Virus record (IMG/VR): IMGVR_UViG_3300007067_000087
Span: 1 to 64,000 of that record
Origin: a virus
Taxonomy: Duplodnaviria > Caudoviricetes
Strand: one strand, 5' to 3'
DNA length: 64,000 nucleotides
Of the stretch, positions 1 to 16,910 are shown in pieces (the stretch's first letter is position 1; each line of letters begins with the position of its first letter). A model generated the notes under the pieces. The model did no database searches, was not told where the DNA came from, and saw only the letters and a list, made by a program, of their open reading frames with translations. A program made the translations under genes and the position numbers.

Positions 1-933
1 ATGAACCAAGACGTGATACAGTCCCATTATGCGGGTGCTGATATGGTTCAGTCTCAACCTCCCCGGTTGAGTAGCCTCATCGAAGAGAGCCGCCCGCTCC
101 AACTCTTTATCCAGTCTCTCCCCGCCATGCAATCGGCCTTTGCCCAGATTGGTACACCAAACTTTGCCGCCAATGTTCTGAACGCCTTGCCAAAGATTGC
201 ATTAGGCAAGTGGACAATTGAACAATATAACGGTTACTTGAAAATCCTGTCCGGTGGGGAAGCAGCTTTACTTCCTACAAGCGATTTGCAAGCATGGTAT
301 AGGGGAGTTCTGGCAAGTCTTGAAAGCGGGGTCACTGTCCGTTTAATGCCTGAATTTATCACGACAGCCCTAAAATCCCATTACCGAGTTACCAAGCAGC
401 AAGATGAATATATCATGCGCACAGTCAGCGTTCAAACATTCCCCGGTGGACGTAATGCTGCTTTACGTGGCAACGTCAATAAGGCTCGCAGATTATGCGA
501 AATCGAAGAATACGACCCTGTTCACTTAGAAGACTATAAAAGGATCGTCCGGCTCTGGTATCGTCAAAATGCTACCCTGAAATTTCGTACCTATGATAAA
601 ACCAGCATCGACTGGCTGTTAGAAAATTGGAAAGCCCTCAAAGAACATGTCCCCGATATTATCTGCCTTGGTGTCCGATATGAGGGAAAACTTATTTCCC
701 TTAATATGGGCTGCAAGTTGAGTGATAATTATTGGTGTGCCTATACGCAGCGTTTTGATCGCAATGCCCCTGTCAAGCATGCCAACATGCTCGGGTACAA
801 TGAATTAGCCTCACGGTTTAACAGCATTGAATTTGAAAATGACGGCACGGCAGATACGGCTTCAATACGGGCTTGGAAAGATAGGCTTGTACACGCAAAA
901 ATCCCTTTCTTTAAAATCAGTCCCAAGGTGTGA
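1..933 (+). CDS. DUF2156 / phosphatidylglycerol-lysyltransferase C-terminal-like GNAT-fold protein (may be 5'-truncated by window edge)
   Basis: DEYIMRTVSVQTFPGGRNAALRGNVNKARR resembles the DUF2156 EYIY..eDL..L.G.ky..kRnhin motif; C-terminal NDGTADTASIRAWK-type ending. Confidence 0.55.
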   Translation: MNQDVIQSHYAGADMVQSQPPRLSSLIEESRPLQLFIQSLPAMQSAFAQIGTPNFAANVLNALPKIALGKWTIEQYNGYLKILSGGEAALLPTSDLQAWYRGVLASLESGVTVRLMPEFITTALKSHYRVTKQQDEYIMRTVSVQTFPGGRNAALRGNVNKARRLCEIEEYDPVHLEDYKRIVRLWYRQNATLKFRTYDKTSIDWLLENWKALKEHVPDIICLGVRYEGKLISLNMGCKLSDNYWCAYTQRFDRNAPVKHANMLGYNELASRFNSIEFENDGTADTASIRAWKDRLVHAKIPFFKISPKV

Positions 934-1970: not shown

Positions 1971-2839
1971 AACGACCCGAAGATAAGATCAAGAGACAAA
2001 ATCAGTGGCTACGCCAACTGTGTTCGGTTGAGGAAGCCGCTCTCGGTATGGTCAAGCCTATTGACCTTTCTAATTGTGACCCTGAAATATTAGTTTGTGA
2101 CAAAGGCTTTTCTCGTGCTGTATGCGATTACTGGCGCGTGGTTTTAAGCTCTGAACCTCAATCCCCAAATTTTTCAGGGGCGGGACGATTTATCGCTCTT
2201 CTTGTCCGTGACAAGGTAAGTGGCGGTTTTATGGGTGTTGTAGGCTTATCAGACCCACCGATATATTGGACGCAACTTAACCAGTATTTGAGTTGGCAAG
2301 GGAATAAGCCTTTGCGACAAGCGCATCAGCACCGTGTTTTCATGATGCGCCGTTGTTTGCCACTTTATGAATTTGGACAGATGACAGGTGGTAAATTGTT
2401 GGCCTTGGTTGCCACCAGCCGCGAATTGATTAGATTGCTTGAGCTTCGCTACAGTTATCAATTCTTATTTTTTGGTATCCGCACCCTGCACGGTAAGGGC
2501 AGTCAATATAACCGGCTGCAACAAAGAGGCATTGAACTTATCAATGTTGATGCGAGCAACCACGGTTTCTATGGTATGGAATTACGCAAGAAAGCCCTCT
2601 CTTATTTGCGGGGTGAGGTTGATAATTACGGCAAGACTTCTACCTACACCATCAAAGAGCAGGTTGCCTATTGGCAGGAACGCTGGCTCACCGCTCGTAT
2701 GAAATCTTTAAATGTTGGTTCGCTGATTACACCTGCCCCCGAACAGTACCGATTATCAAATCTTCTTGCCACCAAGAAAATGACCCTTACCCCAACTATG
2801 GAGACTGATGACAATGGCCGTGAAACTGAACAAGAATAA
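1967..2839 (+). CDS. DUF4338 / DruA / Mom-like GNAT-fold protein
   Basis: LLVRDKVSGGFMGVVGLSDP and GGKLLALVATSRE...TLHGKGSQYNRL match DUF4338-type motifs as recalled. Confidence 0.6.
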   Translation: MKRPEDKIKRQNQWLRQLCSVEEAALGMVKPIDLSNCDPEILVCDKGFSRAVCDYWRVVLSSEPQSPNFSGAGRFIALLVRDKVSGGFMGVVGLSDPPIYWTQLNQYLSWQGNKPLRQAHQHRVFMMRRCLPLYEFGQMTGGKLLALVATSRELIRLLELRYSYQFLFFGIRTLHGKGSQYNRLQQRGIELINVDASNHGFYGMELRKKALSYLRGEVDNYGKTSTYTIKEQVAYWQERWLTARMKSLNVGSLITPAPEQYRLSNLLATKKMTLTPTMETDDNGRETEQE

Positions 2840-3749
2840 AGAAACTCCTGCTAAAAAATCTTCAAAAACTACCCCTGCCAACGATGGGTTACAGGTAACG
2901 AATTGGATTGACACGAGTGTCAACGATTCTGATGCAATTGATTTCCGGCTGGTTGACATCGACAAGGTGGAGGGCAACGACTACAACCCGAATGATATGG
3001 AAGCCGAGTTTTTCGAGGCCATTGTCCGCCAAGTACAAGATGAGGGGATGAATCAGCCTATTCTTGTGCGCGAAAATCCTGACAAACAAGGCTTCTATCT
3101 GATTGTTGACGGTGAACATCGCTGGAAGGCATGCAAGATTGCGGGCAAGACCAAGATCGGCGTGATTGTTGTTCCCTTTGATGAGACGCAAGCTAAAATC
3201 CGTACCCTGTCAATGAACAATCTACGCGGCCAGAATATCCCGATCAAACTGGCAAGGCTGCTGGTTGATATTCACAAAACCTATTCGCCGCAAGAAATCC
3301 GCGCCATGACCGGTATTGGTGAGGAAGAACAAACGTCTGTCTTGAAATTGTTGGAAGTGCCAACCTTTAACCCCAGTGATGGCATCAAAATTTCAACCAC
3401 CGATGTTGAACGGCCAATTTCTGTCAATATCATGCTGATGCCCGATGAAAACACTGCTTATACAACGGCCATGAAAAAAGCCATGAAGCTGATGGGGGAT
3501 GATGTGGTTGCCCTGATCGGTCACGAGGTCGGTGATTATGACAAAGCAATGAAAGCTGCGATGGGGATTGCTGGAGCAAAACTAAGAAATGTTGCCATGG
3601 CGGTTATTTGTGAGACATTTAATAACCTCTCCCCTGATCATAAAGAGCAGATTGCCAAGGCGGCTTACGCCAAAATCTATGACAAATTGGCACAGGATGC
3701 GGAAGTGAAAGAAGAGAAGAAACTGAAATCAGACAAAAAGGGTGCGTAA
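2808..3749 (+). CDS. ParB/Srx N-terminal domain protein
   Basis: NDYNPNDM, PILVRE, LIVDGEHRWKA, TLSMNNLRG are ParB-like motifs; directly upstream of terminase. Confidence 0.85.
   Translation: MTMAVKLNKNKETPAKKSSKTTPANDGLQVTNWIDTSVNDSDAIDFRLVDIDKVEGNDYNPNDMEAEFFEAIVRQVQDEGMNQPILVRENPDKQGFYLIVDGEHRWKACKIAGKTKIGVIVVPFDETQAKIRTLSMNNLRGQNIPIKLARLLVDIHKTYSPQEIRAMTGIGEEEQTSVLKLLEVPTFNPSDGIKISTTDVERPISVNIMLMPDENTAYTTAMKKAMKLMGDDVVALIGHEVGDYDKAMKAAMGIAGAKLRNVAMAVICETFNNLSPDHKEQIAKAAYAKIYDKLAQDAEVKEEKKLKSDKKGA
2933..2946. promoter_or_regulatory. Palindrome variant (inside parB)
   Basis: TGCAATTGATTTCC. Confidence 0.4.
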
Positions 3750-4396
3750 TGACTAATCGGCCAAGGATGCCGCTTAAACCCGGGCGGGTCAATCTTCGTA
3801 AAATCCGTAAAAAACTACCCAAGGATGAGCGCGATGATTTTCCTAAATCTGTTGCTGTACCGATTGACCCCACCTATCCGCGTGAGGGAGGCAACGGCAA
3901 TCAAGCCATGCACGATGAGCAGCAGGTTGCCCGTGTTGAATTGCTGATGCTGAAAGGTATCCGTACACCGCATCAATTGATGACGCTGCTTGATATTACC
4001 AGCCCAAATTTGATAGCAACCTATATCCGCCGTGTGCATGCAAGGTGGGAGATTGGCGGCTCAACCCGTGAATTTACCCGCCATCGCGGCGAAGCATTAA
4101 CAAGATTGGATTTGCTGGAAAGTGAAATGTGGTCAAAATTGAGCAATCTGGATGAAAAGGTCAGCCCGCAAATCACCCTCAATTACCTCAATGCGATTTT
4201 AAACGTGCAAACACGCCGCAATGATATTCTGGGGCTGACGGCTAAAGTTATCCAGCATATCGGTCTAACCACTAATGACCCAGAATTAGCCAAGAGGGCA
4301 GGAGACCATGAAGTCTTGACCAAGGTCGTCTCGCGCCTGTTTGAGCGGATTGAAAACCGTGCCAAGGTAATTGAGCATGAATCCTCAAGCACCTAA
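3749..4396 (+). CDS. Putative terminase small subunit
   Basis: Position immediately before TerL, helical, HTH-like segment GIRTPHQLMTLLDIT. Confidence 0.5.
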   Translation: MTNRPRMPLKPGRVNLRKIRKKLPKDERDDFPKSVAVPIDPTYPREGGNGNQAMHDEQQVARVELLMLKGIRTPHQLMTLLDITSPNLIATYIRRVHARWEIGGSTREFTRHRGEALTRLDLLESEMWSKLSNLDEKVSPQITLNYLNAILNVQTRRNDILGLTAKVIQHIGLTTNDPELAKRAGDHEVLTKVVSRLFERIENRAKVIEHESSST

Positions 4397-6329
4397 ACGG
4401 AAATATCGGCGTGTTGTCAAACGTAAACCCGAGCCAGAACCTCAAACCCGCACTGTCTTGACAACACATGATTTTGACCAGATTGCCGATGAGATTTTGA
4501 CAGAAATTGCCGCTGATTACCCAGAAGAAATTGATCTGGTTATGTCCTTTATCAAACAGGCGGCACATGATCCCGAAGCTATTAAAAATGTTTTGAAATA
4601 TAAGCACAAACCGGTTTCCCCTCGTGAATTTGTTGAGGGTAAAGCCTACATGGACAAGAAAGGCGTATTATGGCCCTCTGTCATGGATGCGCTGATCGAG
4701 ATTAATAATGGTAGCTATATTGAAGCCGTCTTGACCGGTGGTATCGGGGTGGCAAAAACCACCATTGCCCTCTATTCTCAAGCCTACCAGCTTTATCTGA
4801 TTTCCTGTTTACGTGACCCACATACCGAATTTGGTCTTGATCCATCATCAGAAATTGAAATTGTTTTCCAGTCCTTGAATGAAAGTTTGGCAAAGGGCAT
4901 TGATTATGAACGTTTTCGCGGGATGATTGAGTCTGCGCCTTATTTTCAGGCACATTTTCCGTTCGACAACTCTGTTTTGTCTTCTATGCGCTTTCCCAAC
5001 AAGGTTATTGTCAAACCGGTATCAGGCATGTCAACTGCAACCATTGGCGCAAATGTCATTGGTGGGGTGATTGATGAAATCAACTATATGGCCGTTACCG
5101 AAAACTCCAAGATGAATAGGGATGGCGGTACCTATGATCAAGCCATTGCCAATTATAATTCAATAGCAAGACGGCGGGAAAGTCGCTTTATGCAATTAGG
5201 GACATTACCGGGGATGTTATGCCTTGTTTCTTCGCGCAATTACCCGGGACAATTTACAGATACCAAGGAAGTAGAGGCCAGAACCAATCCGCGCATTTAT
5301 GTCTATGACAAATGTTTGTGGGAGTTACAGCCCGATAGGTTTTGTGGGGAGATATTTACGGTCTTTACCGGTGATGAAACCAGAAAACCGCGTCTATTGC
5401 GTGAAGATGAAACTGTTGCCCCACAAGATGAACAACTGATTAAATCTATACCGATTGAATATCGTCCGACATTTGAGAGTGACTTACTCAATGCGCTGCG
5501 AGAGATTGCCGGTGTTTCCACCCATGCTCTGCATCCCTTTATGGTTAATACCGAGGCTGTCGCCGCAGCTTTTGGCAAGACCCGCTCTATCCTGTCGCGT
5601 GAGGATTGCGACTTCGTGAATAGCCGTGTGCAGATTTATCCCAACTTCATCAGCCACAAGCAAGAGCCGCGTCATGTCCATATTGACTTGGCCTATGCTA
5701 AAGACAGTGCTGGTATTGCCGTTGGTCATGTATTCAAATTCATCGAGGTTAACCGTGGCGACCATGTAGAGACATTGCCCCTTATCCAGCTTGATTGCAT
5801 CTTGGAAGTGCAAGTGCCACCGGGTGGGGAAATTGACTTTTCCAATATTCGCCGTCTGCTCTATGCCTTGCGGGATAAAGCGCATCTACCGATTAAATGG
5901 GTAAGCTTTGACGGGTTTCAAAGTCGTGACTCAATGCAGATCTTGTACCAGCAAGGTTTCTCTGTCGGTTATCAATCAATGGATACAGACACCGAAGCCT
6001 ATGACATTACCAAACAGGCCATTTATGACGGTAGATTGCTCGCCCCTGAACATGCTAAAGCGCAACATGAGATGGTAACATTGGAAATTGATGTCAAACG
6101 CAAGAAAATTGACCACCCACCCCACTCATCCAAGGATGTTTCAGATGCTATCGCTGGTGCGGTGCGTGGCTTGACGGTGCGGCGTGAAATCTGGGCAAGG
6201 CATGGTGTTTCCCCGCACAGGATACCGGTCAATCTGCGGCAAGCGGCAGAACCAAAGAGCGCAACCCGTGTTCAAGAATATAATGATACGGAAATAGAAC
6301 TCGGCCATGACTGGCTGCAAACCGCGTAA
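4377..6329 (+). CDS. terL: Terminase large subunit
   Basis: Walker A-like TGGIGVAKTT, Walker B GGVIDEIN, RNase H-like HIDLAYAKD and DVSDAIAG. Confidence 0.85.
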   Translation: MNPQAPKRKYRRVVKRKPEPEPQTRTVLTTHDFDQIADEILTEIAADYPEEIDLVMSFIKQAAHDPEAIKNVLKYKHKPVSPREFVEGKAYMDKKGVLWPSVMDALIEINNGSYIEAVLTGGIGVAKTTIALYSQAYQLYLISCLRDPHTEFGLDPSSEIEIVFQSLNESLAKGIDYERFRGMIESAPYFQAHFPFDNSVLSSMRFPNKVIVKPVSGMSTATIGANVIGGVIDEINYMAVTENSKMNRDGGTYDQAIANYNSIARRRESRFMQLGTLPGMLCLVSSRNYPGQFTDTKEVEARTNPRIYVYDKCLWELQPDRFCGEIFTVFTGDETRKPRLLREDETVAPQDEQLIKSIPIEYRPTFESDLLNALREIAGVSTHALHPFMVNTEAVAAAFGKTRSILSREDCDFVNSRVQIYPNFISHKQEPRHVHIDLAYAKDSAGIAVGHVFKFIEVNRGDHVETLPLIQLDCILEVQVPPGGEIDFSNIRRLLYALRDKAHLPIKWVSFDGFQSRDSMQILYQQGFSVGYQSMDTDTEAYDITKQAIYDGRLLAPEHAKAQHEMVTLEIDVKRKKIDHPPHSSKDVSDAIAGAVRGLTVRREIWARHGVSPHRIPVNLRQAAEPKSATRVQEYNDTEIELGHDWLQTA

Positions 6330-6337
6330 AATTTACA

Positions 6338-6351
6338 TGCAATTGATTGCA
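6338..6351. promoter_or_regulatory. Palindrome site
   Basis: TGCAATTGATTGCA after terL stop. Confidence 0.75.
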
Positions 6352-6444
6352 GATGAATTTTACTTGACATGAAATGTCATCGGCGTAGACTCTTACCATA
6401 ACAATATAAAAGTGGGATTATCCTCACTAAAAGGAGTAAAGACC

Positions 6445-6792
6445 ATGGCAACGGTAAAGGTCACCTCAAAGGGGCAAATTACAATTCCGGCTCATATTCG
6501 TCATGAAATGCGGTTGATTGCAGGTGATAAGCTTGAGCTGGTGTGGATGGATGACGGGAGTTATACTCTTGTGCCGCTAACATATTCTGTTAAAGACTTA
6601 AAGGGAATCGTTCCATCTATTGGTAAACAGGTAACTCTTGAAGATATGCAAGAAGCGATTATTGCCGGATCTTTAGGGCAAGAATTGACCCCGAATGAAT
6701 TTACAGCCGAAATTTTAGAAAAAAGTGACAAGGATGAAGATTTACATTACTTTGATAGTGCCGAAGCAATGTTTAATAATTTGAATATTTAG
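6445..6792 (+). CDS. AbrB/MazE/SpoVT-family antitoxin-like protein with a RelB/DinJ-like tail
   Basis: KVTSKGQITIPAHIR...AGDKL; tail PNEFTAEILE...FDSAEAMFNNL; AGGAG SD before ATG 6445. Confidence 0.8.
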   Translation: MATVKVTSKGQITIPAHIRHEMRLIAGDKLELVWMDDGSYTLVPLTYSVKDLKGIVPSIGKQVTLEDMQEAIIAGSLGQELTPNEFTAEILEKSDKDEDLHYFDSAEAMFNNLNI

Positions 6793-6819
6793 GCTAAAAT
6801 CTGTGGAGGGACGCACGCT

Positions 6820-7011
6820 ATGACTGCAAATCCTATTGTAAAAACAGATGTAGATACAGAACCGGTAGAATCTGTCTTAGACAGAAAACCCTTTATCCCA
6901 AATGCTGTGACCATAGCCGCTATGGAGGAAGCCCGCCAAGGGAATGTACAGAGTTTCGACAGTATAGATGCCTTGATGGATAGCCTGAACTCTGAGGATG
7001 ATGAGCAATGA
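6820..7011 (+). CDS. Short RelB/DinJ-like antitoxin fragment
   Basis: PNAVTIAAMEEARQGNVQSFDSIDALMDSL is a typical DinJ/RelB C-terminus. Confidence 0.6.
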   Translation: MTANPIVKTDVDTEPVESVLDRKPFIPNAVTIAAMEEARQGNVQSFDSIDALMDSLNSEDDEQ

Positions 7012-7203
7012 CAACGACTTTATCCCCCTTAGTTTCAGAGTTTGAAACGGTTGAGCAAGAAGAAAGCTACAATGAGTGGTTACGAGCCAAGGTAGCGGCT
7101 AATCTTGCTGCCCTCGTCCCGCAAGTGTCCCCATGATGAGGTGATGGCAGAAATGGAAGGTCTCATTTCCCAAATGGAAAAGAAATACGCTAAAGCAGGA
7201 TGA
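7008..7203 (+). pseudogene. Frameshifted StbD/RelB-type antitoxin
   Basis: MTTTLSPLVSEFETVEQEESYNEWLRAKVAANLA stops at TGA 7134; HDEVMAEMEGLISQMEKKYAKAG continues in another frame from 7132 to TGA 7203. Confidence 0.75.
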
Positions 7204-7207
7204 AGTC

Positions 7208-7491
7208 GTGTTGCCTAATATCTGGCGTGAGGAGGCTCGTAGTGATTTGCGGCAAATTATCCGATATATTGCCAATGAGAATCCCGCAGCGGTGCGGCGT
7301 GTAAAACAGCGGATAGAGAATGCCGTATTACCCGTCTCAGAGCACCCCTATATGTACCGGATGAGCGAGCGTGTCCCCGGACTTAGGGAGGTTATTGCGC
7401 ACCCCAATTATATTGTATTTTATCGTGTTACAGAAAGAGGGTTGAGGTCGTTAATATCGTCCATGCTCGCAGGGAATTTCCCACGGAATAA
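7208..7491 (+). pseudogene. relE: RelE/ParE toxin, frameshifted near the C-terminus
   Basis: IWREEARSDL...PGLREVIAHPNYIVFYRV; the expected ending VEVVNIVHARREFPTE* lies in a shifted frame from 7441 (GGG run 7439-7441). Confidence 0.75.
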
Positions 7492-7511
7492 AATTTCCCC
7501 CTCTAAAATAT

Positions 7512-7525
7512 TGCAATTGATTTCG
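7512..7525. promoter_or_regulatory. Palindrome variant
   Basis: TGCAATTGATTTCG before PPDK-like gene. Confidence 0.65.
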
Positions 7526-7599
7526 TTTTTGTGTTGTTCATCTACGTCTTTCTGGTAAGATTTAGTGATAATGATTTCACTTAATCCAAGGAGGGATGA

Positions 7600-9600
7600 A
7601 TGTACGGCAAACGTATTTTCCTATTCGGTGACAAAGATAATTGTGACTGGCAAGGCTCTTATGACGAAGCCAAAAAGCTACTTGGTGGCAAGGGTGCAGG
7701 GCTGGTTGAAATGGTCAAGGCAGGGCTTCCTGTCCCACCGGGTTTTACCATCACCACCACAACCTGCAATGAATATCTTGCATTGCCTGAGAATGAACGA
7801 GCCAACTTTATCAAGCAATTGATGGTTGAGGTTTTGGCCTTTGACGAACGTCTGAAATGGGCTTATGGTACGGATTACTCTCCACTTGTCAGTGTTCGTT
7901 CCGGGGCATCGGTGTCAATGCCCGGTATGATGGACACAATCTTGAATATCGGCCTGACAACGGGTAGTTTTCCTGTTTGGGCGAACAGATTGGGAGAAAG
8001 AGCAGCATGGGACAGTTATCGCCGTCTTATCCAGATGTTGGGTTCAACCGCTTACAATATTCCCCATAACAAATTTGAAGAAATCTTGAGCGGTGTTAAA
8101 AATACCGCACAGGTGAGTTCTGATACGGATTTATTAATTGGCGAGTTACAAATCGCCTCTTATCATTATACGGAGCTTTTTAAGAAAAGTGTAGGAGCAG
8201 AATTTCCAGACAGTCGTGAAGAACAACTGGCTGCCGCAATCAGGGCTGTTTTTGACAGTTGGGAAAACCCAAGAGCTATTGAATATCGCAAGATCAATAA
8301 TATTGATTCAGCCATAGGAACGGCCGTCACTGTTCAGGCTATGGTGTTCGGCAATATGAATGAACAAAGCGGTTCAGGCGTGGCTTTCACCCGCAACCCG
8401 TTGACGGGAGAGAAAAAGCTGCTTGGTGAATATCTCCCCAATGCACAAGGAGAAGATGTTGTCGCAGGTATCAGAACCCCGATTGATGTCCGCGCTTACA
8501 TTGCAGATCATAATCCGTCTTGGGCAGATGAATTTTGGCAGCTTGAGAACATCTTGGAGGGCATGTATAAAGACATGGTGGATTTTGAGTTTACCGTGCA
8601 AGACAACAAACTCTACATCCTGCAAGCGCGTGTAGGAAAAAGATCAGCACAATCGGCTTTTACCATCGCCATTGATTTAGTAGAAGAACAGGTCATTGAT
8701 GAACAGACAGCTTTAAGCCGATTAACAAAAGCACAATTCAAAACATTACGCCGTCCACGCATTGATGATGCTTTCAAGGAACTCCCACATTATCAAGGTT
8801 TAGCGGCTTGCCCCGGCATTGTCAGCGGCATACCGGTTTTTAGTTCACAATCTGCAATTGATTGCAACAAGCCTTGTGTTTTGATCACAGAAGAAACAAC
8901 GCCTGATGATATTACTGGCATGAATGCTGCTGTTGGTATTCTTACCCGCACCGGTGGGGCAACCAGTCATGCCGCTGTTGTGGCAAGAGCGATGGATAAA
9001 GTCTGTATTGTTGGCTGTACTGATCTTGATTTTGAAGCCCTCAAAAATGCCAAGCAGATTACATTGGACGGCAGTACTGGTCGGGTATGGATTGATACGG
9101 ATGTTCCCGTCATTGATAGCTCCGACAGCAAGTTGATCAAAACCGTTCAAGAATGGAGTTTTAAGAACACGAATTACGACCTCAGCACCCCGGCCTATGT
9201 TGAAACCGAGCATGACCAGATCATATCTGCCGCTTATTGGTGGGGGCAAGAAGAGGTGTTGGAAGCCGTATTGAGTGATTTATGTGGCAAATCTAATCTC
9301 GGTGATGTTATTTTTGACATAAAATCAAAACGCCATTTCCTCAATGAAGCCGATACGTTGCTTTATGATTGCTCCAATTTTGATGAAGCAAAAGACTTTT
9401 CTAAAACTATTATCAAACAATTAAAGTCAAAGGCCAAACACTTAAAGGGACTGTATTTGGTGGATACGGATTTTGAACCTGACAGCAAGCAAGAAAAAAC
9501 TTTGTTGGATGCTGGTTATCAAATGCTTGCCTCGAATAAAACCAGTTTACGCCGTGCCGTTAATGCTGATACAGCCGCCTTTATTGCCTTATCTGCTTGA
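7600..9600 (+). CDS. PPDK-like dikinase: ATP-grasp plus phospho-His swivel domain, lacking the PEP/pyruvate TIM barrel
   Basis: LLGGKGAGL, VSVRSGA.VSMPGMMDTILN, AQGEDVVAGIRTP, GGATSHAAVVAR; only about 165 aa follow the His domain. Confidence 0.9.
   Translation: MYGKRIFLFGDKDNCDWQGSYDEAKKLLGGKGAGLVEMVKAGLPVPPGFTITTTTCNEYLALPENERANFIKQLMVEVLAFDERLKWAYGTDYSPLVSVRSGASVSMPGMMDTILNIGLTTGSFPVWANRLGERAAWDSYRRLIQMLGSTAYNIPHNKFEEILSGVKNTAQVSSDTDLLIGELQIASYHYTELFKKSVGAEFPDSREEQLAAAIRAVFDSWENPRAIEYRKINNIDSAIGTAVTVQAMVFGNMNEQSGSGVAFTRNPLTGEKKLLGEYLPNAQGEDVVAGIRTPIDVRAYIADHNPSWADEFWQLENILEGMYKDMVDFEFTVQDNKLYILQARVGKRSAQSAFTIAIDLVEEQVIDEQTALSRLTKAQFKTLRRPRIDDAFKELPHYQGLAACPGIVSGIPVFSSQSAIDCNKPCVLITEETTPDDITGMNAAVGILTRTGGATSHAAVVARAMDKVCIVGCTDLDFEALKNAKQITLDGSTGRVWIDTDVPVIDSSDSKLIKTVQEWSFKNTNYDLSTPAYVETEHDQIISAAYWWGQEEVLEAVLSDLCGKSNLGDVIFDIKSKRHFLNEADTLLYDCSNFDEAKDFSKTIIKQLKSKAKHLKGLYLVDTDFEPDSKQEKTLLDAGYQMLASNKTSLRRAVNADTAAFIALSA
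8853..8866. promoter_or_regulatory. Palindrome site (intragenic)
   Basis: TGCAATTGATTGCA in PPDK-like gene. Confidence 0.65.
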
Positions 9601-9641
9601 TGTATAAGAATTTAATTTCAACTCAAAATGAGGGCGAATAA

Positions 9642-9932
9642 ATGGCTTTGGTTTTATCCATCAAGCAAGGACATGATTTCTACATTGGTGACATACGCTA
9701 TTCAATAGAGGCTGTACAACCTGATGGTTGTACTTTACACCAGCATGGAGAAATGCAAGACAAATTTTTTGATGTCACTTGCGATAAAGTAACGGAGGTT
9801 GCCCCGCAAATCTTTATCCGTGCTGGACTGGCATCCCGTAAGGGAGAGGTCAGCCTCGACATCAAAGCTCCTAAAAATATTCTCATTTTACGCGGGGGTA
9901 TAATGAACGCACATCCAAACCAACAAGTCTGA
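9642..9932 (+). CDS. CsrA/RsmA-like small protein with an internal insertion
   Basis: N-terminal LVLSIKQGHDFYIG and C-terminal EVSLDIKAPKNILILR resemble CsrA LVLTRkvGEsIvIG / VriGIeAPkevsIhR. Confidence 0.45.
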   Translation: MALVLSIKQGHDFYIGDIRYSIEAVQPDGCTLHQHGEMQDKFFDVTCDKVTEVAPQIFIRAGLASRKGEVSLDIKAPKNILILRGGIMNAHPNQQV

Positions 9933-9967
9933 ACATGCGCTCATTGCATTAACAACAATCTTGCCCG

Positions 9968-10132
9968 CTAGCTGGCTTTCTTGCCGTTATCGTTGTTCGC
10001 GGAAACAGGGATAGGAAATGCCCTTATTCCATATTGTTTCGCATAGATCACTTTACCGTTTGGCAAGGTGATTGACGTACGAAAAATAAAATCTTTCCCT
10101 TTTTTAGGAGAAGTTTTGTCTTTTTTAGCCAT
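9968..10132 (-). CDS. 54-aa basic small protein (below the ORF-track cutoff)
   Basis: MAKKDKTSPKKGKDFIFRTSITLPNGKVIYAKQYGIRAFPIPVSANNDNGKKAS*, AAGGA SD about 8 nt upstream on the - strand. Confidence 0.7.
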   Translation of the reverse strand: MAKKDKTSPKKGKDFIFRTSITLPNGKVIYAKQYGIRAFPIPVSANNDNGKKAS

Positions 10133-10155
10133 AGAAAATTCCTTTTAGGCTATTG

Positions 10156-10216
10156 ACCGACACCTTCCCGACAAGTAGAAAAGGATTGTTGTTGTCTACT
10201 TGTGGTGGGTGTCGGT
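10156..10216. ncRNA. Long interrupted stem-loop (candidate sRNA or leader)
   Basis: ACCGACACC 10156-64 pairs with GGTGTCGGT 10208-16; ACAAGTAGA 10171-79 pairs with TCTACTTGT 10195-203. Confidence 0.4.
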
Positions 10217-10255
10217 TCTGTTTCAATAGAACTTATGTCCTACAGGTAAATCCCC

Positions 10256-10288
10256 AAGCCCTCTGCACGCCAATGCAGGGGGCTTTTT
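10256..10288 (+). terminator. Rho-independent terminator
   Basis: AAGCCCTCTGCA-cgccaa-TGCAGGGGGCTT followed by T run. Confidence 0.75.
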
Positions 10289-10324
10289 GATTCGCAGTCG
10301 TATATTAAAGTCTATCTTCGCAAG

Positions 10325-10340
10325 ACTCAATAATTTGAGT
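10325..10340. promoter_or_regulatory. Palindromic operator candidate in a divergent promoter region
   Basis: ACTCAA-taat-TTGAGT between the small - strand ORF and the wHTH gene at 10441. Confidence 0.35.
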
Positions 10341-10440
10341 TCTAAAATAAGACTTATTAACGAGAAACACACAATAAATTTGAATAAATTATGATTTCAT
10401 GATAGATTTGAGTTTATATTATTCATTATGAGGTGATTGA

Positions 10441-10914
10441 GTGGCTCATGATATTGATAGAATGGTGACTGAACGAAAAAGGCTATTAAAGCAAAAGGCT
10501 ATCATTGAGGAACGTTTGAGTATTATTGAGGGCATACTTGCCTTGAATAAAAAACTTGAAAATGCTCCAGCCGTTTATTTTGGTGATAATTTCTCTGAAT
10601 TTTCAATCGTAGGAAGAGGTAGGAAAAGACCCCGAGGTGTATTACCCCCGTCAGAAATCGTGACCAATGTTCGTGAATTGCTCATAGAAGCCGGTAGGCC
10701 GATGAACCGGCGTGAATTACTTAAAGAGCTTGAGAGGCGGAATATACCTGTCATAGGAAAAGACCGCGCAAAAGTTGTCGGTACAATCGTTTGGCGAGCT
10801 AAAGAGCCAGATGGCTCGCCCTCCTTTATTAATACAGAGAAAGGTTATTGGCCGTCTGACATTCCTTTACCATCAGTACAATCAACACAAACAACAGGAA
10901 ATAAAAATGAATAA
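10441..10914 (+). CDS. Coiled-coil plus winged-helix hypothetical protein
   Basis: N-terminal heptads; VRELLIEAGRPMNRRELLKEL...KGYW is wHTH-like. Confidence 0.5.
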   Translation: MAHDIDRMVTERKRLLKQKAIIEERLSIIEGILALNKKLENAPAVYFGDNFSEFSIVGRGRKRPRGVLPPSEIVTNVRELLIEAGRPMNRRELLKELERRNIPVIGKDRAKVVGTIVWRAKEPDGSPSFINTEKGYWPSDIPLPSVQSTQTTGNKNE

Positions 10915-11401
10915 ATTGAAACCAAATGGACAATTTGAACTAAATTTGGGCTGGAAGAGAGCGGGCATTACATTGGATATAACGGGTGGGCCTTATGATG
11001 CTTATCCCGGCCAACCCTATTTGGGGGTCTGTGTGCGGGCAGAACAGACAGCGGGACGGCTCATGGATGTACATCTACCGATTGATGATTTTTCTGTTCC
11101 CCGACACGATGATGAAGTACTGAAAGCCCTTGAAAAGACAATCCGCGCTGGTCTGGCGGGCAGGAAAATCTATATTGGGTGTATGGGTGGATGGGGACGC
11201 ACGGGGTTATTTATGGCTCTGCTTGTCAAGGCGTTAGGTGTAGAAGAACCGGTGAGTTTCATCCGCCAACATTATACGCCCCGTGCCGTTGAGACCAAGG
11301 AACAGCAATTCTATGTCAAGAATTTTGATGTGTCTCCCATCAGCCGCAATTTGTGGAAGTGGGCTTGGAAAGCAAGACTGTTCTCATTTTTTAGAAAATA
11401 A
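10907..11401 (+). CDS. CX5R protein-tyrosine/dual-specificity phosphatase-like protein 1
   Basis: LPIDDFSVP (general-acid loop), IYIGCMGGWGRTG, AVETKEQ. Confidence 0.85.
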   Translation: MNKLKPNGQFELNLGWKRAGITLDITGGPYDAYPGQPYLGVCVRAEQTAGRLMDVHLPIDDFSVPRHDDEVLKALEKTIRAGLAGRKIYIGCMGGWGRTGLFMALLVKALGVEEPVSFIRQHYTPRAVETKEQQFYVKNFDVSPISRNLWKWAWKARLFSFFRK

Positions 11402-11403
11402 TT

Positions 11404-11417
11404 TGCAATTGATTGCG
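11404..11417. promoter_or_regulatory. Palindrome variant
   Basis: TGCAATTGATTGCG after phosphatase 1 stop. Confidence 0.7.
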
Positions 11418-11487
11418 ATTTATTATTGTTCTTTGTTGTCTTTCCTTTAAGATTAAATCATATCCTTTAAAAACCATGGAGGGTTTG

Positions 11488-12552
11488 ATGTCTTTGGTTT
11501 CTCCTCGCAGCACACTTGATTTTCACCTTTCTCGCCCGTTGACTTGCTACCGTGACATGAGCCAAGTACCGTTAAAGACGTTTATCAAGAAATTCCGTAG
11601 CTGCCTAAGTAAGGCTGACAAGGTTGCTCCAGAAACAGAGGCTTTGTGGTTTTATGGCTTAAATCATTGCCTAGCTATCATCCAGAGAAAATATGATCGT
11701 TTTGAGCCGATGGATGAAGAGGATGTCAATTTTGTTGATGATTATTACAACATCCTGTCAGAGAAAGCTGTGCGAGCATTTTATTATCTGGTTGCGATTT
11801 GTGTACGAGAAGTTCGGCACAACAAATCTTCGATTGATGATCTGGAAAAAATGATAGAGTTATTTGGAGAGGATACTGCTAAATGGTTCTCCAAAATCGA
11901 GAATGAAAAACAAATTCTTGAACGTTTTACGAAAGAGCCACCCGATACCAGTCTCGGGCATTTCTTTGAATGTATCCGCTGGCAATTCTATAACAGCGTA
12001 TGGTTACAAGGCTATGGTGGCAAAGCATGGGGCAATGTCACCGATTGTTTATTGCGTTTTATCAAAGGAGAAACTTCAGCAGAAATTATGCTGGATACGG
12101 TCTGGACACTCTCGCACAATAACGGGCCGATATTTAACAAGGGGCATTTTTACAGTCAATATGGTAAAGCCTTACCTCGCATCCTTGATATTCAACGCTC
12201 CGGTCAGATACCGGAAGCCATTTTGTATGATAGTGTCATTGTCAGTTTCTACAACACTGAACTTTTGGTTAGAATTGCGAAATTTATAACACATAATCCT
12301 GATCACATTGGCGAATATGTTGATTGGTATAAAGTAGAAGCATTGGGTACTTTGCATAGTTATCCGCAAGAAAAAGGGGAACAGCTTGCCAAATATGGTA
12401 TGACAGAGAGCAACAAACAGTATCTATCTCAAGCTGAAAAACAGAAACAAATGGCTGAGCAACAAAAGATACAAGCACAAATTGAGTTTGAGAAAACCCA
12501 TTACACCATTATGCCTGGGATTCATGTCAAGAAATTTGAACGGGCAGCCTGA
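11488..12552 (+). CDS. Conserved-looking hypothetical phage protein
   Basis: Long ORF with GGAGG SD; motifs GYGGKAWGNVTD and LSHNNGPIFNKG. Confidence 0.55.
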   Translation: MSLVSPRSTLDFHLSRPLTCYRDMSQVPLKTFIKKFRSCLSKADKVAPETEALWFYGLNHCLAIIQRKYDRFEPMDEEDVNFVDDYYNILSEKAVRAFYYLVAICVREVRHNKSSIDDLEKMIELFGEDTAKWFSKIENEKQILERFTKEPPDTSLGHFFECIRWQFYNSVWLQGYGGKAWGNVTDCLLRFIKGETSAEIMLDTVWTLSHNNGPIFNKGHFYSQYGKALPRILDIQRSGQIPEAILYDSVIVSFYNTELLVRIAKFITHNPDHIGEYVDWYKVEALGTLHSYPQEKGEQLAKYGMTESNKQYLSQAEKQKQMAEQQKIQAQIEFEKTHYTIMPGIHVKKFERAA

Positions 12553-12563
12553 AGGAAACCCTC

Positions 12564-13229
12564 ATGAAACATAAGAATTTGAATGACGTTCTATATGGTG
12601 ATCGCGCCGACATTAGACACAACCGTGATGTAATTGATTTTGCAGAACAAGGAAAGCAACAAGAACGTTGTTATCACACCCACCCGCCCTTGAAACTGCC
12701 AAACAGTAAATTTGTCATTTATGGCGGCTCATGCAGTTCTCCGATTGTCAAGGACGCTGATATTTATATTGGCCTTTGCCATACGATGAAGCAGACGGAA
12801 AGGCGTTTCCCATGGGTGAAAGGTGAAGAGATTTATTTTCCCATCCCCGATATGAGTATCCCGAAAGACGTTGAGAATTTTAAAGCTCTTATCACATGGA
12901 CAAAGAAACAGATTGAGGCAGGTGCAAAAGTCCATGTTGGTTGTATCGGCGGACATGGGAGAACAGGGACATTTCTTGCCTCTCTTGTTAGTCTTTATGG
13001 TGAAAAAGATGCGATCCGTTATGTTCGTAAACATTATTGCCACAAGGCGGTTGAGTGTAAGCTACAGGTAGAGTTTTTAGGTCTGCATTTCGGAATAATA
13101 AACGCCGAGGGCTACAAGGACAAACAAGATCGCAAAAAATCTTTCAATTCCAGACAACAGCCTGTAACTAAAAAAGGCGCAAATTTAAAACTCATCACCC
13201 CTGTTCAAAGTGCTATGGCAATATGGTAA
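12564..13229 (+). CDS. CX5R protein-tyrosine/dual-specificity phosphatase-like protein 2
   Basis: FPIPDMSIP, VHVGCIGGHGRTG, AVECKLQ. Confidence 0.85.
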   Translation: MKHKNLNDVLYGDRADIRHNRDVIDFAEQGKQQERCYHTHPPLKLPNSKFVIYGGSCSSPIVKDADIYIGLCHTMKQTERRFPWVKGEEIYFPIPDMSIPKDVENFKALITWTKKQIEAGAKVHVGCIGGHGRTGTFLASLVSLYGEKDAIRYVRKHYCHKAVECKLQVEFLGLHFGIINAEGYKDKQDRKKSFNSRQQPVTKKGANLKLITPVQSAMAIW

Positions 13230-13234
13230 TAATT

Positions 13235-13248
13235 TGCAATTGATTGCA
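13235..13248. promoter_or_regulatory. Palindrome site
   Basis: TGCAATTGATTGCA after phosphatase 2 stop. Confidence 0.75.
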
Positions 13249-13312
13249 GATATAATATTGCGTCCCCACGATTAAAGGCTAAGATGAATAATACACCAAA
13301 ACGGCAAAAGAC

Positions 13313-13819
13313 ATGGAGGTTGAAATGCCGGTGACAATTATCAACAAGAACCAACCATCCCCCAAAATATGGGCGTTGAAAATGCTGCCCGTTAAGGACG
13401 TTTCAAGTGACATTCCTGCCTCCACGCTCTCCAATTTGTGGCCTGAATTTGATCGCAACCAGATGAAGACTGCACCTCTTGTCTGCTTAATTGAGGCAAC
13501 ACAAATGTATCAGCCTGTATCAGGCTCAACTGAGGGAAGTCGGTATTTCGTTGTTGCTGGCAATCAACGTTTAAAAGTCGCTGCCCGTTACCATAACAAA
13601 AGGCTGTCTTGTCGCTTGGAGGGAGAAGATTTGAACAAAAATTACACGCAAAAAGATTTGGGAGCGTTCAATATCAAAAGTGAAAATCATGCTTCGTTTC
13701 ATGCCGAGATTGATAATCTGAAACTGGCAGCAAAAACATTGGGGGCGGTATTGATGGATTTAAATCTTAGCTTTGAAACGCCAATTCCCAATTTTGATAT
13801 TATCAGGGCGGCATCATGA
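13313..13819 (+). CDS. Hypothetical phage protein
   Basis: ORF in operon context downstream of a palindrome and promoter. Confidence 0.5.
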   Translation: MEVEMPVTIINKNQPSPKIWALKMLPVKDVSSDIPASTLSNLWPEFDRNQMKTAPLVCLIEATQMYQPVSGSTEGSRYFVVAGNQRLKVAARYHNKRLSCRLEGEDLNKNYTQKDLGAFNIKSENHASFHAEIDNLKLAAKTLGAVLMDLNLSFETPIPNFDIIRAAS

Positions 13820-14022
13820 TGACTTTAGATGAATTTAAATCTCTGCAAATTGGCGACCAGTTGGAGCTTGAACCGTTATTGCCAAAGATTGATGATGAAC
13901 CCGTACTTTTGACCATGACCGGTAGCTACAAGAATCGCCGCAGCTTCATCGCCACCCTTTATGGTGTTCCCATGCGAACGGTTGAGGCAATTGAGATGGA
14001 AGGCAAGATCAGATGGATTTAG
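13816..14022 (+). CDS. Hypothetical protein
   Basis: Overlapping start/stop coupling with neighbours. Confidence 0.45.
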   Translation: MMTLDEFKSLQIGDQLELEPLLPKIDDEPVLLTMTGSYKNRRSFIATLYGVPMRTVEAIEMEGKIRWI

Positions 14023-14447
14023 TTTATAATGCTTTGTGTCAAGTAGCGGATATTCTACAAATCAAGTTCCAGTGGGATGAATACAATCTCAAAATCAAGA
14101 GCAAGGCTCGCCGCACCTTTCACCCCTCTGACCTCACCTTTTCTATGCCGCTTTCTTTCCCCTCAAGCCGCATTTTTGAAACGCGATTTCTAACCATCAT
14201 CCATCTCAAGGGAAAACTGGCTTTGCTGCTGGATGTACCGATTGAACTTTCTTCCTATTATACGATGTTGCATTTCTTTGATCTTGGCGCAACGGGTGAT
14301 CCTGAAAATTTTCTTGAGGGTATGAAATGTACGGATGAGCGTGATTGTATAGATCAACTCTTTCCTGCCATCGTCAAAAGCTTTTATTTTGATAGTGCTA
14401 CCGATATGTGGCAACCAGTGTCCCGATTGAGTGAGAAACAGGCATGA
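14013..14447 (+). CDS. Hypothetical protein
   Basis: Coupled to the DNA polymerase start (ATGA overlap). Confidence 0.45.
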   Translation: MDLVYNALCQVADILQIKFQWDEYNLKIKSKARRTFHPSDLTFSMPLSFPSSRIFETRFLTIIHLKGKLALLLDVPIELSSYYTMLHFFDLGATGDPENFLEGMKCTDERDCIDQLFPAIVKSFYFDSATDMWQPVSRLSEKQA

Positions 14448-16831
14448 TCATCATCTGGGCAGCCGCCGATGCGGGAGAATTGATCAAGGCTTATTCAAAA
14501 TCTTTCCGCAATTTTAAACCGGCTATTCCACCTCACCAATTCAAATCTTGGCAAGTCCAAGAAGAGCCGCCTATTCCCCAACAGGGACAGATTATTCTTG
14601 TTTGCGGGACAAAACCTTTAAATGTCCTACAAGCGCACGGCATTACCCCAAAGAACCGCAGTGTTTTCAGCATGCGGGAAAAACCGATCAAATATGGGGA
14701 CGGCTATTATCTTATCAGCTTCGATCCCAAAATCCTTAACTCCGAACCGGATAAAGTTGAACTGATTGATTGGGATTTACGCCTTGCAGTTCGCCTAATG
14801 CAGACCGGCACAACCATGCCGCCAATCGGCCATTATAAATATGTCAATGATTATCAGCCGATGATAGATAGCATTGAAGCCGAGTATGAACAAACCGGCA
14901 AACCGGTTGATGTTGCTTGCGACACCGAAACAATGGGCTTTTATCCTTGGTTGCCGGAGAAAGATATTGTCTCCATCAGCTTCACCAGAAAAGCAGGAAC
15001 AGCCGAAGTTTTGTATCTCAGTCAACAGTCAAAACCATTACCCTTTAAGCCTGATGTTAACCTGTTTGGGCAAATCAAATGGTTACTCACCTCCCCAAAG
15101 GTCAAGTTACGGTTGGCAAATGGTAAATATGATTTGATCTGGATCGCCGAGAAGTGGGGAATTGAATGCACCAACTTCAAATTTGATACGATGCTGGTCG
15201 GTTCGCTACTCAATGAAAATCAGTCAAACAGCCTCAATAATCATGCCAAAATTTATACGCCTTTAGGCGGGTACGATGATGGTTTCAATTCAACCTATGA
15301 TAAGGGTCGGATGGAGACAATCCCCGCTAAAGACGATTTCCTTACCTATAGCGGCGGTGATACGGATGCAACTTATCGCGTTGCCGATGTATTGCGGGAT
15401 CAGCTAGCTCAAGATGAACATTTAACAAAATTTTACCTGACAATCCTGCATCCCGCCGCCCGTGCCTTTGAGAAGATTGAACGGCGCGGCGTATTGGTTG
15501 ATCAACAGAAGTACCATCTCTTGCGGGGCGAATTACAGCAAGTTATTGACGAGGGAAATAATAAGGCTCTCTCCATTTTACCCAATAAGTTACGAGAAAA
15601 ATATCGTGACAAGATTGAAAGCCAGCTTGCGCAGGGCAAGAATCCACTGCTACCGTCAATCCTGAAAGATTTTTTCTTCTCTCCACGTGGCCTTAATCTG
15701 AAACCCAAAGTCTTCACCGGTAAGACTAACGAACCCTCAATGGCAAAATCGCATTTGAAACAATTTGCCAATATGCCAGAGGCTTCCGAAATGGTTGAGG
15801 CTTTGTCAGAAATTGATGCTGCCTCCAAAACCCTCTCAACTTTTGTTGAGGGATTCCTTAAACATTTAAGGCCAGATGGACGCTTCCACTCAACCTATTT
15901 TCTCGGCCATACGGCACAAGAAGGCTATGGTGGCGGCGATAGCGGCACGGTGACAGGCAGATTGTCCTGTAAAGACCCTGCCTTTCAAACTTTGCCGAAA
16001 AAGACCAAATGGGCAAAAAGACTGCGTGAATGTTTCATCGCTCCACCGGATAAAGCCATTGTGTCACTTGATTATTCTCAAGGAGAATTACGGGTAGTGG
16101 CCTGTGTCGCGCCAGAACCAACCATGATCAAAGCCTATGAACAATGGCTTGATCTGCATGCCGTTACGGGGGCGAAACTCGGCAATGTTGATTTGCAGGA
16201 ATTTTTATCGTGGGAGAATAGCACAAATGAGGATTTGAAAGAACTGTTCAAGGAATACAGAACCAAGGCCAAACCAGCTAATTTTGGTCTCCTGTACGGT
16301 ATGCAGACCCAAGGCTTTATTGCCTATGCGTGGGCGAATTATGGACTAAAACTTTCAGAACAGGAGGCCTATAAAATCCGCAATGATTTTTTCACCCTCT
16401 ATAGCGGCTTGACAAAATATCATGAAAAACAGAAGATGCGGGTTAACAACCAAGAAATGGTACGTAGCCCGCTAGGACGTATCCGCCACCTACCAATGAT
16501 CAAATCGTGGGATAATGCGATACAATCCCGTGCCGAGAGACAAGCGATAAACTCTCCTATCCAATCCTGCCTTTCCGACATGATGCTGTGGGCAATTGCT
16601 CTGATTGAGCAAGAATACGGAGAGCATGTGGATATTGTCGGTACAGTGCACGACAACCTGATCGCCTATGTACCAGCGCAAGATGTAAATCTTTGGGCAA
16701 AAAGATTGGTCGAAATTATGGAAAACCTGCCTTTCCATGAATTGGGTTGGCAACCCCAACTTAAATTCATTGCTGATGCCGAGGCTGGTCTTAATTTGGC
16801 CGATATGGAGAAAGTCAAATTCAACGTTTGA
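14444..16831 (+). CDS. polA: Phage family A DNA polymerase with 3'-5' exonuclease and a degenerate UDG-like N-terminus
   Basis: Exo I DTETMG, Exo II NGKYD, Exo III YSGGDTD; motif A DYSQGELR, B KPANFGLLYG, C TVHDNL. Confidence 0.92.
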   Translation: MIIIWAAADAGELIKAYSKSFRNFKPAIPPHQFKSWQVQEEPPIPQQGQIILVCGTKPLNVLQAHGITPKNRSVFSMREKPIKYGDGYYLISFDPKILNSEPDKVELIDWDLRLAVRLMQTGTTMPPIGHYKYVNDYQPMIDSIEAEYEQTGKPVDVACDTETMGFYPWLPEKDIVSISFTRKAGTAEVLYLSQQSKPLPFKPDVNLFGQIKWLLTSPKVKLRLANGKYDLIWIAEKWGIECTNFKFDTMLVGSLLNENQSNSLNNHAKIYTPLGGYDDGFNSTYDKGRMETIPAKDDFLTYSGGDTDATYRVADVLRDQLAQDEHLTKFYLTILHPAARAFEKIERRGVLVDQQKYHLLRGELQQVIDEGNNKALSILPNKLREKYRDKIESQLAQGKNPLLPSILKDFFFSPRGLNLKPKVFTGKTNEPSMAKSHLKQFANMPEASEMVEALSEIDAASKTLSTFVEGFLKHLRPDGRFHSTYFLGHTAQEGYGGGDSGTVTGRLSCKDPAFQTLPKKTKWAKRLRECFIAPPDKAIVSLDYSQGELRVVACVAPEPTMIKAYEQWLDLHAVTGAKLGNVDLQEFLSWENSTNEDLKELFKEYRTKAKPANFGLLYGMQTQGFIAYAWANYGLKLSEQEAYKIRNDFFTLYSGLTKYHEKQKMRVNNQEMVRSPLGRIRHLPMIKSWDNAIQSRAERQAINSPIQSCLSDMMLWAIALIEQEYGEHVDIVGTVHDNLIAYVPAQDVNLWAKRLVEIMENLPFHELGWQPQLKFIADAEAGLNLADMEKVKFNV

Positions 16832-16869
16832 ATTGAGACTTCAAATCTTGCTGTAAATGTGTCATATTA

Positions 16870-16889
16870 ATTTGCAATTAATTGCAAAT
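16870..16889. promoter_or_regulatory. Perfect 20-bp palindrome
   Basis: ATTTGCAATTAATTGCAAAT before portal. Confidence 0.8.
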
Positions 16890-16910
16890 TATTTAAAAGA
16901 GGCAATTCCT

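Follow-up and report, generated by a model that had tools for sequence, protein, structure and literature searches.

A 64,000-nucleotide stretch of a Caudoviricetes genome (positions 1 to 64,000 of the IMG/VR record IMGVR_UViG_3300007067_000087; hereafter the window) encodes a protein resembling pyruvate phosphate dikinase (PPDK) that is probably the ATP-driven phosphate-donor subunit of a split dikinase. In this arrangement the acceptor site would be provided by a second protein, here called X379, and two cysteine phosphatases, PTP1 and PTP2, would act on the product. The genes concerned are the following:

7600..9600, + strand: dikinase open reading frame (ORF; P0001), 666 amino acids (aa)
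10907..11401, + strand: PTP1, cysteine phosphatase of the dual-specificity/protein-tyrosine phosphatase (DSP/PTP) type with the P-loop GCMGGWGRTG; Pfam PTP-SAK and Tc-R-P
11488..12552, + strand: X379 (phrog_20946), all-alpha, 354 aa, proposed acceptor and substrate-binding subunit
12564..13229, + strand: PTP2, cysteine phosphatase with the P-loop GCIGGHGRTG and an N-terminal Cys/His-rich segment

A preliminary description of this DNA had presented the dikinase as a stand-alone kinase; it belongs instead to a conserved group of four or more genes.

Judged by its sequence, the donor half of the dikinase is complete, with the residues for the ATP-to-histidine half-reaction all present. The chain can be divided into four segments:

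7600..8739, + strand: ATP-grasp nucleotide-binding domain of the PPDK type, residues 1-380 (Pfam PPDK_N, E 4.6e-46)
8740..9114, + strand: phospho-His swivel domain, residues 381-505 (Pfam PEP-utilizers over residues 424-494, E 3.7e-23)
9115..9177, + strand: linker helix, residues 506-526, the last segment with sequence similarity to PPDK
9178..9600, + strand: alpha/beta tail, residues 527-666 plus stop, a probable decayed TIM-barrel remnant and docking platform for X379

A ribosome-binding site (AAGGAGG) lies 6 nt 5' of the start. The combination of a PPDK_N ATP-grasp and a PEP-utilizers mobile domain on one chain places the protein in the superfamily of phosphoenolpyruvate (PEP)-utilising/His-swivel dikinases. 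The swivel motif TSHAAVVAR occupies residues 455-463, its GGATSH matches the G-G-x-T-S-H of PPDK, and the codon of the catalytic His457 is found at 8968-8970, inside GGATSHAAVVAR. In the alignment K31, R100, E330, Q342 and R344 correspond to K22, R92, E323, Q335 and R337 of Clostridium symbiosum PPDK, and T455 and H457 to its T453 and H455; these PPDK positions are the ones mutated in PDB entries 1jde, 2dik and 1ggo. Among 59 members of the dikinase family, R100, E330, Q342 and R344 are invariant, as are T455, H457, A458, A459 and V460, and K31 is nearly so. The AlphaFold2 (AF2) model of the protein has a mean predicted local distance difference test score (pLDDT) of 91.1 and a predicted template modelling score (pTM) of 0.85, and its swivel superimposes on the phosphoryl-carrier domain of PPDK (2fm4) with a VIA-align (VIA) Z of 14.8 and a root mean square deviation (rmsd) of 2.1 over 114 aligned residues. 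Intact ATP-grasp motifs and a catalytic histidine had already been read from the DNA in the preliminary description, correctly so, because the residues of the ATP-to-histidine half-reaction are all kept; the Pfam assignments, the aligned residues and His457 bear this out.

The proposal that the second half of the enzyme resides in X379 comes from comparative genomics and modelling. A search for related loci with the single dikinase sequence found none; an alignment used as the query yielded 80 viral loci, and the counts given here refer to the 64 that carry at least 5.5 kb of downstream sequence. A short dikinase (562-780 aa) is present in 53 of them, each time accompanied by a homolog of X379 (53/53). 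A long PPDK (864-908 aa) is encoded in the remaining 11, only one of which (L072) also has X379. Independent support for the coupling is provided by L072 together with two gene fusions. In the first fusion (L075, a 780-aa ORF) the ATP-grasp and swivel at 11-516 are followed by the X379 core at 572-742, detected with a hidden Markov model (HMM) at E 2e-24 and with the invariant motifs kept. In the second (P0025, 1050 aa) the order is opposite, X379 lying at 22-344 (hhalign 99.6%) and the dikinase at 504-980. The two fusion proteins are unrelated to each other, both are devoid of the tail, and the similarity to P0001 stops at residues 516-524. The L072 operon (L072:4512-11553) consists of a 297-aa ORF, the X379 homolog (E 3e-16), a 292-aa ORF, a 471-aa PTP-like protein and an 866-aa PPDK-like protein with a full-size, recognisable barrel (PF02896, E 7e-23). 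The PEP-site motifs of this barrel are replaced: RTEHMF reads KTGQDI, GTNDLTQ reads DTDRITE, CGEHGG reads SGSHAS, and the Arg before LLDPP is a Gln. L072 thus looks like an intermediate and may represent the ancestral state of the module. The barrel was probably inactivated first and only later reduced to a docking platform, with complete loss in the proteins in which X379 was fused to the dikinase.

Prediction of the complex between dikinase residues 395-666 and X379 gave an interaction score (ipSAE) of 0.87 (0.89, 0.87 and 0.81 in individual runs), compared with 0.00 for the best of three controls. Among solved complexes, 58 of 80 attain this ipSAE mark, as do 2 of 110 mismatched pairs, counts that hold only roughly here because custom alignments were used for the complex prediction. 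The runs share at least 89% of contacts, with a partner pLDDT of at least 84. On the dikinase side the predicted interface is composed of loop 451-457, which includes His457, and of the tail segments 573-596 and 652-665; on the X379 side it comprises 196-212 and 237-240 with the invariant D204, L209, N212, Q237 and G240. Within the tail, conservation is higher at interface positions than elsewhere (permutation p 0.014), and the same holds within X379 (p 0.009). The prediction supports binding of the two proteins without demonstrating it.

X379 belongs to a family of at least 499 protein clusters, all labelled hypothetical. The AF2 model built from 51 homologs (pLDDT 95.4, pTM 0.89) is all-alpha and not a TIM barrel. 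Searches of the PDB with this model yielded nothing better than E 0.58 with Foldseek, and VIA-align against 48,161 chains found nothing above Z 4.3, mostly single-helix matches. PDB sequence profiles and the ESM Atlas contained no relative, BFVD only unnamed members of the protein's own family, and Pfam run on all 51 family members no consistent match. About 20 positions, polar and aromatic and spread over roughly 355 residues, are invariant, among them E109, R111, H112, G178, G179, W182, D204, H211, N212, N218, K219, D235 and Q237. Such a pattern fits a putative binding or catalytic pocket.

The third component of the module is the pair of phosphatases, present in 49 of the 53 short-dikinase loci. 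Both appear, from their conserved residues, to be true hydrolases: the general acid D62 (motif D..P), C93 and R99 of the P-loop, and E130 and Q134 of a Gln-containing loop (E-T..Q) are invariant in PTP1, the equivalent D96, C127, R133, E164 and Q168 in PTP2, and the CX5R signature is kept in 115 of 117 homologs. The nearest solved structures to PTP1 are RPTP-epsilon (2jjd, E 6.7e-14), a DSP-family protein (25xa, E 5.6e-13), Tk-PTP and DUSP23. For PTP2, with a best PDB profile match of E 5.6e-11, they are small archaeal protein-tyrosine phosphatases and DUSP23. Phosphatases of this type point slightly to a phosphate on an aryl or other hydroxyl as the putative substrate. PTP2 homologs additionally carry a near-invariant C36, H40 and C57 on the N-terminal side of the catalytic core, possibly forming a small metal-binding site. 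PADLOC, run on six module proteins, reported nothing beyond weak matches of PTP2 to two ‘Csx1’ type III CRISPR-associated signalling models (E 2e-4 and 3.5e-3). Both phosphatases also match phrog_17568 (PTP1 E 1.5e-24, PTP2 E 5e-29), annotated as thymidylate synthase; the name seems to be an annotation error for a CX5R phosphatase that has spread, and in the Stenotrophomonas phages DLP3 and DLP5 it is the second phosphatase that bears it.

Taken together, these data suggest the following reaction sequence. ATP would bind to the ATP-grasp domain and His457 would be pyrophosphorylated, after which the gamma-phosphate would be lost to phosphate or water while the beta-phosphate stays on the histidine. 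This part of the scheme draws on residue conservation and on the mechanisms of PPDK and of VadK (Rv1127c) from Mycobacterium tuberculosis, a PPDK descendant without the barrel, in which ATP and Mg support autophosphorylation at His422 (PMC13400623). The swivel would then deliver this phosphate to X379, at its conserved surface of basic and aromatic residues. As suggested by the genomic comparison and the models, X379 would sit on the approximately 140-aa tail, supply the acceptor site and position the substrate. Finally, PTP1 and PTP2 may hydrolyse the product or a related phospho-ester. If the phosphatases act in this way, the module would either cycle a phosphate mark on and off or form a short pathway via a phosphorylated intermediate.

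The nature of the substrate can only be ranked. Other small molecules, glycans or lipids lead, at somewhat less than an even chance; a nucleotide or nucleic-acid-related hydroxyl is a tentative second, and a protein or phenolic hydroxyl a more doubtful third. The module lies next to a DNA polymerase gene:

14444..16831, + strand: family A DNA polymerase, 3' of the module (Pfam DNA_pol_A, E 4e-62)

This adjacency suggests nucleotides or DNA, the phosphatases by their type hint at a hydroxyl on a protein or a phenolic compound, and neither clue is strong. A polymerase of this family is encoded in 52 of the 64 loci and in none of the 11 long-form loci. In a more specific version, which we consider unlikely, the module is a phage nucleic-acid or nucleotide phosphorylation pathway: dikinase and X379 would add phosphate to a hydroxyl group, whether on phage DNA, on a modified base or sugar, or on a nucleotide precursor, and the phosphatases would trim this phosphate or recycle it. 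Such a pathway would explain why the module is found beside the polymerase and between the terminase and portal genes. If it exists, it could amount to DNA modification or nucleotide-pool manipulation that shields the phage from host defences.

Rather improbable, in our estimate, is a phosphorelay in which X379 takes the phosphate itself, as target or carrier, for instance at the invariant His112 or His211 or at a Tyr, with the phosphatases as erasers, comparable to Enzyme I and HPr or to VadK acting on its partners. X379 does contain invariant His and Tyr residues, the predicted interface puts the His457 loop on its conserved surface, and both phosphatases have protein-tyrosine phosphatases as their closest relatives of known structure. 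For VadK, moreover, a regulatory function as a histidine kinase and interactions with partner enzymes have been described (PMC13400623). However, the fusion of a kinase to its sole substrate in two different orders is more typical of enzyme domains than of carrier-target pairs, and the approximately 20 invariant positions of X379 resemble a binding pocket, not a single acceptor site.

A further possibility was raised in the preliminary description, in which the dikinase was a self-contained kinase and its C-terminal 140-165 aa a new acceptor domain replacing the pyruvate barrel. Rifampicin phosphotransferase and glucan water dikinase show that the chemistry accepts domain swaps, and the tail is kept among the closest relatives. 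It also folds confidently: in the AF2 model of the whole protein, on which the fold statement rests, it is made of alternating strands and helices with pLDDT mostly 85-95. Conservation nevertheless makes this reading highly improbable. No other part of the protein varies as much as the tail, whose mean majority fraction across the dikinase family is 0.28, compared with 0.57 for the ATP-grasp and 0.64 for the swivel; its length ranges from 76 to 273 aa, none of its residues is invariant, and both fusions drop it yet retain X379. The best-conserved positions it has (573, 585, 592 and 593) all lie inside the predicted X379 interface.

What the tail is instead can be approached from its position. 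The dikinase model aligns with the PPDK structure 1kbl at a VIA Z of 47.6 and rmsd 7.0, with 646 of 666 residues aligned (model 3..666 against chain 2..870), and residues 395-666 align with Enzyme I including the barrel (2wqd; VIA Z 13.3, rmsd 14.5, 262 aligned). From these two placements the tail therefore appears to occupy the place of the barrel. Searching 1.84 billion representatives with the tail alone returned 16 weak matches (best E 7e-10), mostly short proteins and no known family. Overall, the tail is probably a decayed barrel remnant that acts as a docking platform. The earlier characterization as approximately 165 aa of unrelated sequence stands in so far as sequence similarity to the barrel is absent, the segment measuring about 140 aa, or about 165 if counted from the end of the swivel; it falls short in that the model overlays part of the barrel position.

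Loss of the barrel itself is evident from several comparisons. The PEP-utilizers_C barrel (PF02896) was not found in the dikinase by Pfam at E up to 1, nor in a six-frame search of the whole 77,037-base IMG/VR provirus record, a search that was positive in 14 of 14 control genomes. The PPDK equivalog model TIGR01828 is covered over profile positions 2-540 of 865 only and scores 556.5 bits, 287 bits under its cut-off of 843.45. Alignments with solved PPDKs (E 6.6e-121 to 1e-113) end near residue 527, which corresponds to residue 534 of 1kbl, the start of the barrel; up to that point the structural alignments show 33-36% identity. Of the features that define a PPDK, the ATP-grasp and swivel are thus present, while the TIM barrel with its Arg, Glu, Asn-Asp and Cys site and an equivalog-level score are absent, and PEP-site motifs were not found in the tail. 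These results bear out the earlier view that the gene is a reuse of the ATP-grasp/His-swivel dikinase and not a metabolic auxiliary gene or PPDK. They also speak against a separate TIM-barrel partner, which had been named as the finding that would overturn this view: PF02896 was not found in the record and the partner X379 is all-alpha.

Phage papers treat the gene as a metabolic PPDK (PMC12038007, PMC7326821), and in the Vibrio phage J26 paper a four-stranded ‘TIM barrel’ is described and PEP docked into it (PMC12038007). The published label of glycolytic auxiliary metabolic gene is almost certainly wrong. That the protein is a true metabolic PPDK or PEP synthase, its short tail forming a minimal PEP/pyruvate site perhaps completed through dimerisation, has a negligible probability, since the close match of the N-terminal 527 residues to solved PPDKs, the J26 barrel with docked PEP and the overlay of the tail on the barrel position are outweighed by the lack of a PF02896 signal, the shortfall on TIGR01828, the absence of PEP-site motifs from the tail and even from the full-size L072 barrel, and a gene that in related loci strictly accompanies X379 and the phosphatases, with glycolytic genes never linked to it. 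A literature search on the module, on phage ‘PPDK-like’ genes and on PTP-SAK phosphatases found no paper on the function of the module.

Several points weigh against the split dikinase that we favor. The 53 loci with a short dikinase are not independent observations because most of these phages, a lineage with genomes of about 100 kb, share descent. The complex score expresses the model's own confidence and is not a measurement. X379 has no recognisable fold or motif, so that its role as an acceptor domain, as opposed to a phospho-acceptor protein or a regulator, is one we infer. The proposed link between tail and barrel is weak at the level of sequence: beyond the whole-model overlay with its rmsd of 7.0 it consists of a permissive profile comparison, including L072 and the shared linker, that gave a colinear match of 65% in which D573 falls on the LLDPP strand, whereas a stricter comparison of the tail profile with the PPDK C-terminal domain gave a probability of 2% only. 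Finally, a kinase together with two phosphatases has no obvious logic if all of them handle the same bond.

A split dikinase of this kind can be compared with several known systems. With PPDK (EC 2.7.9.1; 1KBL/1DIK, Flaveria 5JVN) the phage protein shares the ATP-grasp, the T-S-H swivel, the linker helix and the overall domain placement, and very probably also the first partial reaction from ATP to His-phosphate. Unlike PPDK, it has a non-conserved remnant of approximately 140 aa in place of the barrel and is always encoded with X379 and cysteine phosphatases. The nearest characterized precedent is VadK, likewise a PPDK descendant without a functional barrel and a phospho-His protein that works with partners. 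VadK ends after the swivel without a tail and has no reported X379 or PTP partners, whereas the phage dikinase carries a folded tail; VadK is found in actinobacteria and the module in phages of proteobacteria. On the VadK-type model NF004531 the dikinase scores 439.2 bits, below the cut-off of 456, and canonical PPDK scores higher; the barrel was therefore probably lost independently of VadK.

Delivery by the same swivel to an acceptor other than the barrel is also seen in phenylphosphate synthase, in rifampicin phosphotransferase (RPH; 5HV1) and in HpeHI, a two-component dikinase of the rifampicin-phosphotransferase type (PMC12167813; PDB 9GOJ), systems which show that the enzyme can be split into polypeptides. 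In HpeHI and RPH-like enzymes the split separates the ATP-grasp from the swivel plus substrate domain; here it follows the swivel, so that ATP-grasp and swivel share one chain. X379 has no detectable likeness to the RPH-type substrate domain among the 48,161 chains (best Z 4.3), although a missing match is not proof of a different fold. In plant starch metabolism, glucan water dikinase, a PPDK-type dikinase, is accompanied by the two CX5R phosphatases SEX4 and LSF2 that remove its phosphates, to our knowledge the only well-known system with these three kinds of player. The resemblance is one of analogy only. Glucan water dikinase has N-terminal carbohydrate-binding modules; Pfam detected none in the phage dikinase, only a weak GWD1_pHisD match over the swivel (E 0.0054), X379 is not such a module, and nothing points to a glucan substrate. 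In the PTS, Enzyme I uses a phospho-His swivel of the same family that docks onto a separate protein, HPr, to hand on its phosphate; Enzyme I, however, is charged from PEP via an intact barrel and not from ATP, and HPr, a small alpha/beta protein, bears no relation to X379.

The analysis corrects an annotation, since dozens of phage genomes and several papers assign the gene to glycolysis as an auxiliary metabolic gene (PMC12038007, PMC7326821), and defines a widespread module of a dikinase, a partner with a new fold and cysteine phosphatases. It also suggests the stepwise dismantling of a three-domain enzyme, with a dead full-size barrel in L072, a shrunken docking remnant in the phage studied here and fusion with a new domain in L075 and P0025. 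Because the cultured phages RcZahn, DLP3 and DLP5 and Vibrio phages carry the module, the substrate question is open to direct experiment.

Gene order around the module is similar in cultured phages. In Rhodobacter phage RcZahn the terminase is followed by small ORFs, ‘PPDK’, small ORFs, a PTP, a 357-aa hypothetical protein, a second PTP, further ORFs, DNA polymerase and portal, and a gene table with the same arrangement has been published for DLP3 and DLP5 (PMC7326821). In the window the polymerase and the entire dikinase module lie between the large terminase and the portal (4371-18632), an unusual site for replication genes that is kept across the phage group. Two smaller genes in this region have homologs in related loci:

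9642..9932, + strand: small CsrA-like ORF directly 3' of the dikinase (Pfam CsrA, E 1.5e-5, under the cut-off)
13313..13819, + strand: conserved neighbor (phrog_25950, PHROG E 1e-7) with homologs in 44 of 81 related loci

The CsrA-like ORF has homologs at the equivalent position in 37 of the 81 loci, and CsrA is also annotated in the Vibrio phage J26 paper (PMC12038007). The phrog_25950 protein is shorter here than its relatives of approximately 260-300 aa.

A palindromic motif, TGCAATTGATT[G/T]C, occurs in 15 copies in the window compared with 0.27 expected. Four copies are located in or near the module:

7512..7524, + strand: 88 nt 5' of the dikinase start; candidate operator or promoter-linked site
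8853..8865, + strand: inside the dikinase ORF, at codons ~419-423
11404..11416, + strand: between PTP1 and X379
13235..13247, + strand: after PTP2

The dikinase had been described as having its own palindrome upstream and one inside; both copies are real but belong to a phage-wide set. With the motif found genome-wide, a reading of the two copies as private regulatory sites of the dikinase was rejected.

Other stretches in or near the module have few or no counterparts in the related loci. The region from 9933 to 10914 is absent from relatives and contains a 54-aa ORF on the minus strand and a 157-aa ORF (10441-10914) without a family or a homolog in the loci. A strong terminator-like hairpin of 12 pairs, 7 of them G-C, lies at 10256-10285. 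The gap between terminase and dikinase (6445-7558) encodes a MazE/AbrB-type antitoxin (PF04014, E 3e-8), a 63-aa ORF and a ParE toxin (PF05016, E 2e-14); these genes have no homolog in the 81 related loci, so that a moron insertion specific to the window seems likely. Positions 1-3749, on the 5' side of the terminase genes, encode an LPG_synthase_C-like protein, a 346-aa ORF, a DruA-like protein and a ParB_N protein, the first three of which have homologs in only 4-5 of the 81 loci and are therefore uncoupled from the dikinase module.

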